Sequence record: MG563770.1
Source of the DNA: Escherichia phage EMCL318
Reading direction: 5' to 3' (one strand)
DNA: 5,489 nucleotides
Under the pieces are notes generated by a model. It had not been told where the DNA came from, searched no databases, and saw only the letters and a list, made by a program, of their open reading frames with translations. The translations under genes were made by a program, and so were the position numbers. Each line of letters begins with the position of its first letter. Position 1 is the stretch's first letter. Shown in pieces: positions 4-5,489 of this stretch.

Positions 4-33
4 TTGACTAAAATCTATCTCTTCACTTAACAT
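4..33 (+). promoter_or_regulatory. Candidate sigma70 promoter for gene A (PA-like): -35 TTGACT at 4-9, 18-nt spacer, -10 TAACAT at 28-33
   Basis: Read directly from the sequence: 5/6 match to TTGACA and 4/6 match to TATAAT with the invariant A2 and T6 present. The position just upstream of A matches where phiX174-type phages place PA. The -10 overlaps the ATG at 32. Confidence 0.35.
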
Positions 34-61
34 GCCTCCAAACCAACGGAGGCTTTTCTAC

Positions 62-1732
62 ATGCAACAACACTTAACCGCTTCGGACTTCTACCGCAAA
101 CCAATAATCGACGCTATCAAACCTCTTGTCGAAACTGCTGGAATGTCTGTGCTTACTCAATCTCCTAACCTCCGTATCTGGAAACAGTGCAATACTCGCG
201 TAAAACTGCTGGAAGAAATTCTAAATCACTACACTAACGGTATTCGCCGTGATGATAATGGTGACTTCTTTCTCAACCCTGAATGCCAACTCGCTACTAC
301 AATTGCTTATCGTGCTCACAAAAAGGGCCATAACCCTCGCTTTAAACAATACCCTGAATCGTTCACTCTGGACGATATTATTACTGGCAAGCCAATCCCT
401 CAGACTGCTCCTTCTGAACTTCAACTTACTGATGAAATCGGTGAGGATTACCGCCTTACTGTACTCTCCATAATCGAAGAGTTAGACGAATGCTACAACG
501 TGCTCGGACAACTTGATATTAATAACACTATAGACCACAAACCTATCGGTAACGCCAAATGGGACTTAATGTATGAAAAACCTGTCTATAAACACTGGTA
601 TGAACTGGTATCAAAACGACCCCTTAAATCAATCAGAGAGGACTACAACTATGCAAAGGCTAAGGGTACTAAAGATGAGTGCTCGAAAATCCTTGAGGAA
701 TCCACCATGAAATCCCGGCGCGGCTTTACCGTACAAAGATTAATGAATGCTATGCGCACCGCTCACACTGATGGATGGTACGTTGTATTCGATACTCTTA
801 CCTTAGCTGATGACCGTATTAAGGACTTCTATGCTAACCCCAATGCTCTTCGTGACTATTTCCGTGATATTGGTCGTATGGTCCTCACTGCCGAGGGTCG
901 TTCGGTCCATGATTCATCTACGGACTGCTATCAGTACTTTTGTGTGCCTGAGTATGGCACCCAGCATGGCCGTTTACACTTTCACGCAGTGCATCTTATG
1001 CGCACACTTCCTTTGGGTTCTCTCGACCCTAACTTTGGTAAGCTGGTGCGTACTAATCGGCAAATAAATAGCTTGCAAAACACATGGCCTTATGGTTACT
1101 CTATGCCCATCGCAGTCCGGTACTCTCAAGATGCTTTCTCTCGCGCTGGATGGCTCTGGCCTGTTGATACAAAGGGTGAACCCCTTAAATCCACCTCGTA
1201 TATGGCTGTAGGCTTCTACGTTGCTAAATACGTTAATAAAAAATCTGATGTTGACATAGCCGCAAAAGGCTTAGGGAATCAAAAATGGAACGCTACATTA
1301 AAAACGCAGATGGCTCTTTTACCAAAGAAACTATTCCGAATCCGAATGAGCCGCAACTTCGGGATGAAACTACTCCCAATGACGACGCTCACCGCGGAGT
1401 GCTTAATCCAACTGACCCAAGTGGGTTACGACGTGACCCCGTTCAACAACATCTTGAAGCAGAACGCCAAGAAAGAGCTACGATTGAGGCTGGCAAAGCA
1501 ATCTGTAGCCGACGTTTTGGAGGCGCAACCTGTGACGACCAATCTGCTAAAATTCATGCGCAATTTGACCCGCAAAATCGGAGCGTCCAGCCTACAGAGT
1601 TTTATCGCTTCAATGACGCAGAAATTAGCAAGTACGGATATTTCTGATGAAACCAAAAACTACGTTACTAATGCAGGAATTGCTGTTGCTGACTTACGAC
1701 TTAAATCGAAGTGGACTGCTGGTGGAAAATGA
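62..1732 (+). CDS. A: Replication initiation protein A (HUH rolling-circle endonuclease), 556 aa from ATG 62; the ORF is open from an upstream ATG at 32 (566 aa)
   Basis: The translation matches recalled phiX174 protein A over long stretches ([17 protein letters not shown], MKSRRGF, [16 protein letters not shown], [90 protein letters not shown]). GGAGG at 48-52 sits 9 nt before ATG 62; no Shine-Dalgarno precedes ATG 32. The TGA stop at 1730-1732 overlaps the C start. Confidence 0.9.
509..538 (+). other. Viral (+) strand origin of rolling-circle replication: 30-nt conserved origin CAACTTGATATTAATAACACTATAGACCAC, expected nick between G515 and A516
   Basis: Exact 30/30 match to the recalled phiX174 origin 30-mer that protein A nicks. 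It lies inside gene A and encodes [12 protein letters not shown], as in phiX174 and G4. Confidence 0.85.
707..1732 (+). CDS. A*: A* protein: in-frame internal start within A, 341 aa, begins MKSRRGF
   Basis: ATG at 707 is in the A frame and corresponds to the phiX174 A* start (residue 173 of phiX A, MKSRRGF). GAGGA at 692-696 lies 10 nt upstream. The predicted length equals phiX174 A* (341 aa). Confidence 0.5.
1285..1647 (+). CDS. B: Internal scaffolding protein B, 120 aa, overprinted within gene A in a different frame
   Basis: The translation ([57 protein letters not shown]) matches recalled phiX174 protein B and has the same length. The TGA stop at 1645-1647 overlaps the K start (TGATG). 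Confidence 0.9.
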
Positions 1733-1817
1733 AGAACTTCAATCTCAACTTAAAGAACTCGAGGGCGTCTTACTTCGCAACCTTTCGCCATCATCTAAAC
1801 GTGGTGGCAAAGACTGA
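1647..1817 (+). CDS. K: Protein K, 56 aa, overlapping the 3' end of A and the 5' end of C in the third frame
   Basis: Not in the supplied ORF track (too short). My translation from ATG 1647 is [56 protein letters not shown] with TGA at 1815-1817. It matches recalled phiX174 K (…KQELLLLVYELNRSGLLAENEKI…CDLSPS…) and has the same 56-aa length. Confidence 0.8.
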
Positions 1818-1998
1818 CGCACTTGATGAGGAAAAATGGCTCAACATGATGGGCGCTCTTCTCAAGGACTGGTTCCGCTATGAACAACATTTCGTACATG
1901 GCAAAGAATCAATGCTTGACATTCTAAATGAACGTGGCCTATTATCCACCTTGCCAAATGGCTTAACTTGCAAAGGAATCAAAAATGAAAGCAAATGA
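1729..1998 (+). CDS. C: Protein C (ssDNA synthesis and packaging switch), 89 aa
   Basis: From ATG 1729 the translation is [40 protein letters not shown]…, matching recalled phiX174 C (SSYFATFRH…[13 protein letters not shown]…KDWFRYE.HFVHG). The ATG overlaps the A stop as ATGA (1729-1732). The ORF-track start at 1711 is a GTG extension. Confidence 0.85.
1916..1945 (+). promoter_or_regulatory. Candidate sigma70 promoter for the late genes (PD-like): -35 TTGACA at 1916-1921, 18-nt spacer, -10 TATTAT at 1940-1945
   Basis: 6/6 match at -35 and 5/6 at -10, read directly from the sequence. It lies inside gene C about 40 nt upstream of the D start, where phiX174-type phages place PD. Confidence 0.4.
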
Positions 1999-2519: not shown

Positions 2520-2526
2520 TCTTTAA

Positions 2527-2540
2527 GGGGCTTCGGCCCC
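2527..2540 (+). terminator. J-F intergenic stem-loop GGGGC-TTCG-GCCCC (5-bp GC stem, UUCG-type tetraloop), followed by TCTATTT
   Basis: Perfect inverted repeat read from the sequence. It sits at the position of the post-J terminator/mRNA-stabilising hairpin of phiX174-type phages, immediately before the F ribosome-binding site. Confidence 0.5.
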
Positions 2541-2558
2541 TCTATTTAAGGATACAAA

Positions 2559-3839
2559 ATGTCTAACGTACAAACTTCCGCAGAACGTATTCCGCATGAC
2601 CTCTCACATCTGGTCTTCGAAGCTGGTAAAATCGGTCGCCTTAAAACTATCTCTTGGACTCCTGTTGTCGCTGGTGATTCTTACGAAACTGAAATGGTAG
2701 GCGCTATTCGCCTCTCCCCACTCCGTCGTGGTCTGGCTGTCGACTCTCGCGTCGACGTCTTTACTTTCTACATTCCTCATCGTCATGTCTACGGTCAACA
2801 ATGGATTGACTTTATGAAGACTGGCGTTAACGCTACTCCTTTGGCTCCCGTGACTTGTGCTTCTGGCTGGGACTCTGCTGCCTATCTTGGCACTATCCCG
2901 TCAACTAACTTGAAGGTTCCTAAATTCCTTCATCAATCTTATCTGAACATTTACAACAACTACTTTAAGCCGCCGTGGTCTAATGACCTCACTTACGCTA
3001 ACCCATCTAATATGCCTGCTGAGGATTACAAATGGGGCGTTCGTGTCGCTAACTTAAAATCTATCTGGACCGCGCCCCTTCCTCCTGATTCATTAACTAA
3101 GCAGGATATGACCACTGGCGCTACTACTATCGATATTATGGGCCTACAAGCTGCCTATGCTAAACTCCATACTGAACAGGAACGTGACTACTTCATGACT
3201 CGCTACCGCGATATTATGAAAGACTTTGGCGGTCACACCTCTTATGACGGTGATAACCGTCCTCTGCTCCTGATGCGCTCTGAATTTTGGGCCTCTGGCT
3301 ATGACGTCGACGGTACTGACCAAACTTCATTGGGTCAGTTCTCTGGTCGCGTCCAACAAACTTTTAATCATAAAGTGCCTCGCTTCTATGTTCCTGAGCA
3401 TGGCGTAATTATGACTTTATCTGTTACTCGCTTCCCTCCTACTCATGAAATGGAAATGCACTATCTCGTCGGTAAGGAATCTCTAACTTACACTGATATT
3501 GCCTGTGACCCTGCTCTTATGGCTAACCTGCCTCCACGTGAAATTGAGGTAAAAGACCTCTTCCACTCTGCTGGCACTGGTAAATTCAAAATTGCCGAAG
3601 GTCAATGGTATCGTACTCAACCTGACCGCGTTGCCTTCCCTTATAACGCTCTCGACGGCTTCCCTTTCTACTCTAAACTGCCGTCTAATGATATTCTCGA
3701 ACGTGTACTTGTTCACACTGATAACTACGATGAAATATTCCAGTCTATGCAACTTGTACACTGGAATATGCAAACTAAATTTAACACTACTGTATATCGT
3801 CATATGCCTACTACTCGCGATGGCATCATGACTTCTTAA
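2559..3839 (+). CDS. F: Major capsid protein F, 426 aa
   Basis: Extensive match to recalled phiX174 F (MSN.QT.AER.PHDLSHL, GRL.TIS.TPV.AGDS, RLSPLRRGLA.DS.VD.FTFY.PHRHVYG.QWI.FMK.GVNATPL, YLNIYNNYFK.PW, IWTAPLPP, IDIMGLQAAYA.LHT.QERDYFM.RY, DNRPLL.MRS, WASGYDVDGTDQTSLGQFSGRVQQT, FKIAEGQWYR, VYR..PTTRD.IMTS). AAGGA at 2548-2552 lies 6 nt before the ATG. Confidence 0.95.
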   Translation: MSNVQTSAERIPHDLSHLVFEAGKIGRLKTISWTPVVAGDSYETEMVGAIRLSPLRRGLAVDSRVDVFTFYIPHRHVYGQQWIDFMKTGVNATPLAPVTCASGWDSAAYLGTIPSTNLKVPKFLHQSYLNIYNNYFKPPWSNDLTYANPSNMPAEDYKWGVRVANLKSIWTAPLPPDSLTKQDMTTGATTIDIMGLQAAYAKLHTEQERDYFMTRYRDIMKDFGGHTSYDGDNRPLLLMRSEFWASGYDVDGTDQTSLGQFSGRVQQTFNHKVPRFYVPEHGVIMTLSVTRFPPTHEMEMHYLVGKESLTYTDIACDPALMANLPPREIEVKDLFHSAGTGKFKIAEGQWYRTQPDRVAFPYNALDGFPFYSKLPSNDILERVLVHTDNYDEIFQSMQLVHWNMQTKFNTTVYRHMPTTRDGIMTS

Positions 3840-3931: not shown

Positions 3932-4465
3932 ATGTTTCAAACTTATCTCTCTAAACATAATTCTCCGTTAACTTCTCAGTCTATTACTGCTACAAAAACA
4001 CCTGCGGCTGCTGCTCCGATTATTTCTACACCGGAGCTTAGCCGCTCTACTATTTTCGCTGGCTTAACTCTGACTGCTGCCACTGCTCATTCTGGTGTCG
4101 CTCATGTCGTTCGTATTGACGAAACCAATCCTACTGACAATCAGGTTTTATCGGTCGCCGCTTCTTTATCTGGCGTACCGTCTGATGCTATTGCTATTGC
4201 TATTCGCTTTGAAGTCGCTGACGGTACCGTCCCTACTGCTCTCCCTGCTCTCTACTCTGCTTATCCGGTGGAATTCTTCACTTCTGGCGCTGCTCTGTCT
4301 TGTAAGGATGCCGTATCTATTCCGACGCATCCTGTTACTGCTGGTAATGATGTATATGCTGGTATTCTTATCTGGTCCAAATCTTGGTCCGCTGGTGTCG
4401 TCTCCGGCCTCTTATCTGTTAATCAGGTAAATCGTGAAACTACCGTACTCCAACCTCTTAAATAA
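3932..4465 (+). CDS. G: Major spike protein G, 177 aa
   Basis: From ATG 3932 the translation MFQTYLSKHNSP… with C-terminus …LSVNQVNRETTVLQPLK matches recalled phiX174 G (MFQTFISRHNS…LVSLNQVIKEI.CLQPLK), and the central region keeps RFE, VPT.LP.AY and GN.VY.G motifs. AAGGA at 3920-3924 lies 7 nt upstream. The ORF-track start at 3887 is a TTG extension. Confidence 0.9.
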   Translation: MFQTYLSKHNSPLTSQSITATKTPAAAAPIISTPELSRSTIFAGLTLTAATAHSGVAHVVRIDETNPTDNQVLSVAASLSGVPSDAIAIAIRFEVADGTVPTALPALYSAYPVEFFTSGAALSCKDAVSIPTHPVTAGNDVYAGILIWSKSWSAGVVSGLLSVNQVNRETTVLQPLK

Positions 4466-4475
4466 GGTCTAATCT

Positions 4476-5489
4476 ATGTTCGGTGCAATCGCTGGCGGTA
4501 TCGCCTCCTCTCTCGCTGGTGGACTCCTGAACAAAGCATTCGGGGGCGGTTCTTCCGCTCCCCAATCTGGCGTTCAAGGTAATGTCCTCGCTACTGACAA
4601 TAATGTAATCGGTGCTAATGATGCTGGTATCAAATCCGCTATTCAGGGTTCTAATCCTCCCAATAGTCAACAAGCTGCTCCCAATGCTATATCGGGCGTT
4701 CTTGCCGATACTGGCAAAGACGCCCTATCTTCAATCACTGGCGCTGGCGTTAATAAACTTATGGAAAAAGTCGGGCTATCTAAAGATGCTGCTGCTAAAG
4801 GTAAGGATACAAAAGATTATCTTGCTTCTGCGTTCCCCGAACTCAACCCGTGGGAACGTGCTGGCGCTGGTGCTTCTTCTGCTGGAATGGTTGATGCGGG
4901 ATTCCAAAACCAAAAGGAATTAACTCGCATGCAGCTTGACAATCAAAAAGAAATCGCTAAGATGCAAAACGACACTCAAAAGGATATCGCTGGTATCCAG
5001 TCTCTTACTTCTCGGCAAAATACTAAGGACTCTGTGTATGCTCAAAACGAAATGCTCCAATACAACCAAAAAGAATCTATGTCACGTGTTGGCGCTATTC
5101 TCGAAAACACAAGCCTCACCAAACAACAACAAACTTCTGAAATTATGCGGCAAATGCTTACTCAAGCTCAGACCGCAGGTCAACATTTTACAAATGACCA
5201 AATCCAAGAACTTACTCGAAAGGTCGGCGCTGATATTGATGCTGTTCGTGCTAACACTGAACGTACACATGTAGAAACGGACCGCTCTAAGCAGGAGGTC
5301 CAAAACTCTCGTTACGCTTCCTCACAAGTCGGTAAAACCGCTAAGGATGTATCAAATGTCATTAGTGACGCATCTTCTGGTATTGTTGATTATTTTCGTG
5401 GCGTTGATAAAGCTGTCGCGGATACTTGGAACAATTATTTCAAAGATGGCAAATCGGATGGGATAAGCTCAAATCATCGTACCAAATAA
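4476..5489 (+). CDS. H: Minor spike / DNA pilot protein H, 337 aa
   Basis: Strong match to recalled phiX174 H ([151 protein letters not shown]). AAGG at 4464-4467 lies 8 nt upstream. The TAA stop is the last 3 nt of the window. Confidence 0.93.

Follow-up and report, generated by a model that had tools for sequence, protein, structure and literature searches.

The DNA analysed here, referred to as the window, is the whole 5489-nt stretch of Escherichia phage EMCL318 held in sequence record MG563770.1. When the whole window was compared with GenBank phage records by megablast, full-length matches were obtained to coliphage WA14 (DQ079909, 98.5%) and ID18 (NC_007856, 97.5%), followed by G4-like phages at 82-86%, all of which belong to the genus Gequatrovirus (Microviridae, Bullavirinae). 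On the strength of these matches, the window is the complete genome of a natural G4-like microvirus from the ID18/WA14 lineage, opened into linear form between genes H and A. A total of 83 positions separate it from WA14, among them a 3-nt insertion at 12-14; most lie within gene F. The genome comparison gave zero differences from WA14 in 1580-1969, so the region discussed below is base for base that of WA14.

The coordinates of the genes and sequence elements at the locus are collected in Table 1. Gene A starts at a position that matches the WA14 annotation (59-1729) shifted by +3, and its product belongs to the Pfam family Phage_GPA (E 2.6e-57). A* shares the frame of gene A and begins at ATG 707. 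The open frame of gene A reaches upstream to an ATG at 32, which was rejected as a start because the homologous annotated start corresponds to ATG 62 and because SD pairing was +2.0 kcal/mol at 32 and -9.5 kcal/mol at 62. Gene B, which corresponds to 1282-1644 in the WA14 annotation, was recognised by Pfam as Phage_B (E 1.3e-48) and is terminated by tandem stops, TGA TGA (1645-1650). The first 27 codons of gene K lie over the 3' end of A, and codons 28-56 over the 5' end of C. Gene C, annotated at 1726-1995 in WA14, shares 14 nt at its 3' end with the start of D (1985). The first start found by the ORF lister in the frame of C was GTG 1711; it was rejected as the C start, having no SD (+0.1 kcal/mol), and the annotated relatives all begin at an ATG or GTG homologous to 1729.

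Table 1. Genes and sequence elements at the A/B/K/C locus of the window (frame, start position modulo 3)
Feature	Coordinates	Strand	Frame	Details
Gene A (replication initiator)	62..1732	+	2	Stop TGA 1730-1732; present in the ORF list
Gene B (internal scaffolding protein, 120 aa)	1285..1647	+	1	Nested in A
Gene K (56 aa)	1647..1817	+	0	56 codons plus TGA
Gene C (DNA maturation protein, 89 aa)	1729..1998	+	1	Pfam Phage_C, E 2e-37
TGATG, B stop/K start sharing base 1647	1645..1649	+		B stop TGA 1645-1647; K ATG 1647-1649
22-nt invariant block	1701..1722	+		Zero variation in 15 G4-like and phiX174 genomes
GGTGGA, sole SD-like element ahead of the C start	1721..1726	+		Anti-SD duplex -4.9 kcal/mol
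ATGA, C start/A stop	1729..1732	+		C ATG 1729-1731; A TGA 1730-1732

Each of the two junctions is crossed by a further gene. At the B/K junction, gene A runs through in the third frame (TCT GAT GAA), and across the ATGA of the A/C junction gene K reads AAT GAA, with A, K and C in three different frames (start positions modulo 3 of 2, 0 and 1, respectively). Five bases of the genome are triple-covered, namely 1647 and 1729-1732. Base 1647 is part of an A sense codon (GAT), the B stop and the K start. Because 1730-1732 is the stop of A, base 1729 is the only one within sense codons of all three of A (AAA), K (AAT) and C (ATG). The 9-mer TTCTGATGA was found as a single occurrence at the homologous B/K site in 25 of 25 fetched loci from three genera, and GGTGGAAARTGA was present at the A/C junction in 14 of the 25. 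The distance from the K start to the A stop was 85 nt in every genome compared. The same overlaps, one base between B and K and four bases between A and C, are annotated in WA14, ID18, G4, WA3, WA6, NC19, ID2, FL76 and phiX174.

The original prediction, made from the sequence alone, had placed a 56-aa K protein matching that of phiX174 at 1647-1817 and had noted that it was missing from the ORF track, an absence explained by the default 60-aa cut-off, which omits a protein of 56 aa. Direct reading and translation confirmed this gene, as well as the proposed overlaps of the B stop with the K start and of the C start with the A stop, and the coverage of 1729-1732 by all three frames. Two statements needed adjustment. 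K had been said to read through both junctions, which is correct for A/C; at B/K it is K that begins and A that reads through. The arrangement had also been called the classic one of microviruses, a description that fits the G4-like and phiX174-like clades and fails for the alpha3 clade, in which A and C do not overlap.

The K protein had the same sequence as the gpK annotated in WA14 (100% identity) and was 95% identical to K of ID18 and 84% identical to K of G4. The predicted match to phiX174 K was obtained end to end, with 54% identity over all 56 residues, no gaps and an E of 1e-17; K of alpha3 was alignable by BLASTP over residues 1-21 only. Residues 1-51 matched Pfam PF12283 (Protein_K) with 56.3 bits against a gathering cut-off of 25 (E 3.7e-15), PHROG 1713 was matched with an E of 1.9e-30, and the tblastn matches in the phage records searched were enterobacterial microviruses throughout. 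The identity of the feature as gene K is essentially certain, and we are highly confident that, as in G4 and phiX174, it is a small gene overprinted on A (3' end) and C (5' end). A single-sequence AlphaFold2 model of K (mean pLDDT 86) contained a helix at 3-22, a turn and a second helix at 29-46, with low confidence for the tail (47-56). The product is accordingly predicted to fold into a hairpin of two helices followed by a floppy C-terminal tail. The low-confidence tail of the model is also the part of K that varies and is truncated among relatives.

What is known of K as a protein made in infected cells, non-essential and raising burst size, comes from the literature on phiX174 and G4, and phiX174 is the sole phage in which its function has been tested. 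In phiX174, K is non-essential, and an increase in burst size has been reported for it (Gillam 1985, as cited in bioRxiv 10.64898/2026.07.25.740675); RefSeq notes likewise carry a non-essential, burst-size role. Saturation mutagenesis of phiX174 revealed K nonsense and missense changes without laboratory fitness cost (bioRxiv 10.64898/2026.07.25.740675), and codon-usage analyses (Pavesi, cited in PMC8227390) class K as a de novo gene that arose by overprinting.

The short junction motifs alone mean little, with 20 copies of TGATG in the window where 10.6 would be expected. Nor is an open frame of 56 codons remarkable, because off-frame stop-free runs of at least 56 codons are common on the plus strand of the window. 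As a chance control, the A and C proteins were held fixed and synonymous codons were resampled from the genome's own usage. The K frame was open over all 56 codons in 1.2% of these resamplings; codons 1-27 stayed open in 24% and codons 28-56 in 5%. The 22 relatives examined represent the G4-like, phiX174-like and alpha3-like clades; in every one the frame was open for at least 50 codons, with K lengths of 50, 53, 54 or 56. Stops in the K frame of related genomes, named in the original prediction as the observation that would speak against the gene, were confined to C-terminal truncations at codon 51 (ID204, 50 aa) and codon 55 (MG1 and SECphi17, 54 aa each); K of the alpha3 clade has 53 aa. 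Eight other off-frame runs of at least 56 codons, all unannotated, were each broken by a stop in at least one of G4, ID2, MG1 and phiX174. The K run, by contrast, had zero stops in ID18, G4, ID2 and phiX174 and one in MG1 (codon 55). K thus stands above chance through its position and conservation, not through its motifs. The diversity available for these comparisons came mainly from GenBank phage records, and a scan of IMG/VR with the K alignment gave six loci, several of which are apparently copies of reference genomes.

Selection in the two halves of K was assessed on a gapless alignment of 15 G4-like and phiX174 genomes, covering 963 nt ahead of the K start and 330 nt after it. In the A/K overlap, the third positions of A codons, which are the second positions of K codons, were variable at 10 of 27 sites (37%), compared with 133 of 199 (67%) where A alone is encoded (Fisher p=0.005). 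The pS of A dropped from 0.41 to 0.15 in the overlap (pooled Nei-Gojobori, 28 genome pairs), and the pN of the N-terminal half of K, 0.10 by the pooled Nei-Gojobori method, did not exceed the value for the A tail (0.12). Variation in this half of K was conservative at the amino-acid level (L/I/M, T/V/A, D/E), and the N-terminal helix and turn, QELLLLxYxLNRSGLL, were under a constraint at least that of the A tail. The invariant block within this stretch encodes LNRSGLL in K and (R)LKSKWTAG in A, and sits immediately before the C start. For the overlap of K with C, third codon positions of C varied at 20 of 27 sites (74%) inside and 35 of 45 (78%) outside (p=0.78), and the pN of K inside it was 0.23. 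Conservation of synonymous sites, proposed as a check on the overlap, was therefore seen in the A/K half, with no such signal in the K/C half. These results support probable purifying selection on the N-terminal half of K, where it overlaps A. They also indicate that detectable purifying selection may be limited to the part of K encoded within A, its first helix and turn, and that the second half of K is likely dominated by C. With 27 codons in each half and phylogenetically related genomes, the synonymous-site tests indicate rather than prove such selection.

The initiation signals of the two downstream genes differ in strength. Among all gene starts, that of K pairs most weakly with the anti-SD (-3.3 kcal/mol), at background level (27th percentile of genome positions). 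The GGTGGA ahead of C is moderate (15th percentile of genome positions) and unusually near the ATG, with pairing that ends at -3. When both junctions and 1620-1760 were folded as RNA, the stabilities fell within the shuffled range (z +0.42, +0.89 and -0.31), and a search of the whole window with Rfam at gathering thresholds gave zero matches. C protein was lower in a decompressed phiX174 with the A/C junction separated, a construct in which the 5' UTR was also changed (bioRxiv 10.1101/2020.06.10.143693). From the weak anti-SD pairing of K, the moderate and cramped element of C, junctions no more structured than shuffles, and the lower C protein after separation in phiX174, we infer with about an even chance of being right that both stop/start overlaps act as termination-reinitiation sites. 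A ribosome ending the abundant B at UGA 1645-1647 would restart on AUG 1647-1649 and translate K, and C would be translated by ribosomes that end A or A* at UGA 1730-1732 and then resume on AUG 1729-1731. The output of K would thereby be linked to that of B, and the output of C to that of A/A*. In the alpha3 clade, C is started from a separate ATG with an AGGAG, so coupling to A would not be obligatory for C. MG1 keeps the A/C overlap with GTG as the C start, which was likewise counted against obligatory coupling.

The overlaps could instead be mere genome compaction, with K and C initiated independently and the shared bases having no regulatory role. We regard this as a serious contender, with a little less than an even chance of being correct. 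It accords well with the recognisable GGTGGA element of C, with start regions that are both unstructured and therefore accessible, with the alpha3 clade, whose C starts at an ATG behind AGGAG, 27 nt beyond the A stop, and with the GTG of MG1, which implies that the start codon itself can drift within the overlap. It accords less well with K, whose anti-SD pairing is at background and yet whose TGATG junction is invariant in 25 loci, or with the phiX174 decompression, which ties removal of the A/C junction to less C protein, although the 5' UTR was altered as well (bioRxiv 10.1101/2020.06.10.143693).

Only K codons 1-28, for the N-terminal helix and turn, might be functional, the rest being kept open mainly so that B-derived ribosomes cross the C start and tune C; or 1701-1722 might carry a cis signal beyond dual coding. 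We consider this very unlikely. If either were true, the B/K/A/C knot would be a regulatory device, beyond compact coding.

It is very improbable that the low variation in 1647-1728, and especially in 1701-1722, reflects a cis-acting nucleic-acid element and not K coding. Candidates for such an element would be the C initiation region, a DNA signal, or a site of Rho utilisation or termination resembling T_C of phiX174. The invariant block does lie directly upstream of the C start, and a Rho-dependent terminator that lowers K transcripts has been proposed near the 3' end of B in phiX174 (bioRxiv 10.1101/2020.03.05.979765), but RNA structure was no greater than in shuffles, Rfam gave zero matches, and variation in the N-terminal half of K follows conservative amino-acid exchanges. 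Moreover, both peptides of the dual-coded block are invariant, LKSKWTAG in A and LNRSGLL in K, so every base is already fixed and a cis element is not needed. That the K frame is non-functional, open as a by-product of A/C constraints and T-rich codon usage and with its reduced variation unrelated, is hardly credible: long off-frame open runs are frequent in the genome, the first 27 codons stay open in 24% of resamplings, phiX174 tolerates K nonsense mutants and the C-terminal half of K is without constraint, but all 22 relatives, from three genera, keep at least 50 codons of the frame open while every control run is broken in at least one relative, the probability of joint openness is 0.012 in one genome, neither the start codon nor the junction varies, the suppression of A-synonymous sites falls exactly on K second positions, a burst-size phenotype has been published for phiX174, and protein data from 1978 reportedly match the G4 frame.

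Gene K as a small coding gene overprinted on A and C is thus the reading that we retain, and its overlap with both genes is already known: accounts of it in G4 and phiX174 date back to 1978, and the nearest relatives carry it in their annotation. Shaw and colleagues are said to have matched the K reading frame of G4 to protein sequence data, and their 1978 account of G4 reportedly described four bases read in three phases. Reference lists give Shaw et al. (1978, Nature 272:510) as the G4 K paper, and discovery of the gene through comparison of G4 with phiX174 is credited to Tessman (1980, cited in bioRxiv 10.1101/2020.03.05.979765). Nothing at the locus is biologically new, and its value lies in annotation and benchmarking. 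The GenBank records of MG1, Lilleven and SECphi17 omit K although the frame is present, and in the genome of EMCL318 gene K should be annotated at 1647-1817. The locus also provides a clean positive control for overlapping-gene detection methods. At the same time it exposes a limit of these methods, with a synonymous-site signal coming from the A/K half only.

Stop/start overlaps of the UGAUG and AUGA type are associated with translational coupling in bacterial operons, such as the trp operon. The junctions described here share the same sequences and, in the case of K, the weak SD on the downstream gene. They differ from the bacterial ones in that a third frame crosses each junction, and in that coupling is here something we infer. 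Among phages, the alpha3/St-1/WA13 clade (Alphatrevirus) shares the conserved N-terminal K motif LLMQEL.LL, an A/K overlap of 85 nt and, where B meets K, TTCTGATGA. It departs from EMCL318 in its A stop, which reads GTGA, and in its annotated C start, which is 27 nt further on and preceded by AGGAG; as a result, no base at that junction is common to A, K and C. In phiX174 (NC_001422), K also has 56 aa, with B ending and K starting at base 51, A ending at 136 and C starting at 133, whereas residues 2-9 and the C-terminal half have diverged from the K described here. K of G4 (AF454431) has 56 aa, the same TGATG and ATGA junctions and the same 85-nt spacing; C of G4 has 84 aa and does not overlap D, in contrast to the 89-aa C of EMCL318 with its 14-nt overlap. 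In WA14 and ID18, the coordinates of the B/K junction, the A/C junction and K are the same as here once the 3-nt upstream insertion is taken into account, and in WA14 the whole K region is nucleotide-identical to that of this phage. The closest match to the K of EMCL318 is that of G4 and WA14, not that of phiX174.

The A/C overlap of the window (ATGA) was compared with the homologous sequence in related phages. In the alpha3-like phages (loci L005 at 2240-2272, L010, L011 and L022), the A stop reads GTGA, and no stop interrupts the C frame between this GTG and the annotated ATG 30 nt downstream. The homologous C start codon of MG1 (about 1632 in locus L009) is likewise GTG, within GTGA. Because GTGA is found in MG1 and in the alpha3 clade, where the C frame is open, the position of the overlap must be older than the ATG.

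Gene K is not annotated in the public records of MG1 (OR702609), Lilleven (MK629527) and SECphi17 (LT960607), even though the K frame is intact in all three, with 54, 53 and 54 codons, respectively. The MG1 and Lilleven records additionally lack B and C or other genes, and the SECphi17 record carries no annotation at all. The window itself contains eight unannotated stop-free off-frame runs of 57-118 codons, located within A, F, G and H or across the J-F and F-G gene boundaries. These look like by-products of codon usage, since each contains stops in one or more of the relatives G4, ID2, MG1 and phiX174.

Features located in the window, with coordinates in nucleotides
Feature	Position	Strand	Location or relation	Basis
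Off-frame stop-free runs	225-470, 807-1064, 2527-2697, 3553-3828	+		
Off-frame stop-free runs, continued	4074-4427, 4609-4920, 4924-5271, 5275-5463	+		
Promoter-like TTGACT-18-TAACAT	4-33			
Hairpin and T-run	34-53		Downstream of the promoter-like match; 3' arm GGAGGC is the Shine-Dalgarno sequence (SD) of ATG 62	
Sigma-70-like TTGACA-18-TATTAT	1916-1945		Inside C	11/12 match
GC-rich hairpin GGGGCTTCGGCCCC	2521-2550		J-F intergenic region	Spotted by eye
GC-rich hairpin GTTGAACGGGTAC...GTGCCTGTTCAA	3849-3885		F-G intergenic region	Spotted by eye

Gene F (2559-3839) holds 51 of the 83 differences between the window and WA14, only four of the 51 altering the amino-acid sequence. Its divergence from WA14 is 4.0%, compared with 3.7% for J and 0-1.1% for the remaining genes, and its identity is 96.0% to both WA14 and ID18. 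This pattern suggests that the capsid gene was either acquired by recombination from a lineage absent from the database or has an unusual synonymous rate. The terminator scan of the window did not flag the hairpins in the intergenic regions on either side of F, as the T-run is missing.

In the ID18/WA14 lineage, including the window, C encodes 89 amino acids and overlaps the D start by 14 nt (1985-1998 in the window). This overlap is only 4 nt in phiX174 and ID2, and is absent in G4. The best sigma-70-like match of the whole genome lies ~40 nt upstream of D, the place where a pD promoter would be expected.

The H-A intergenic region carries a 3-nt insertion (AAT at 12-14) relative to WA14 and ID18, which accounts for the length of 5489 vs 5486 nt and for the +3 offset in the coordinates of every gene. 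In the A frame, the earliest ATG, at 32, lacks an SD; the strongest SD of the genome (anti-SD pairing energy of -9.5 kcal/mol) belongs to ATG 62, where A is annotated to start in relatives. The promoter-like match followed by the hairpin and T-run recalls the pA-then-T_H order of phiX174.
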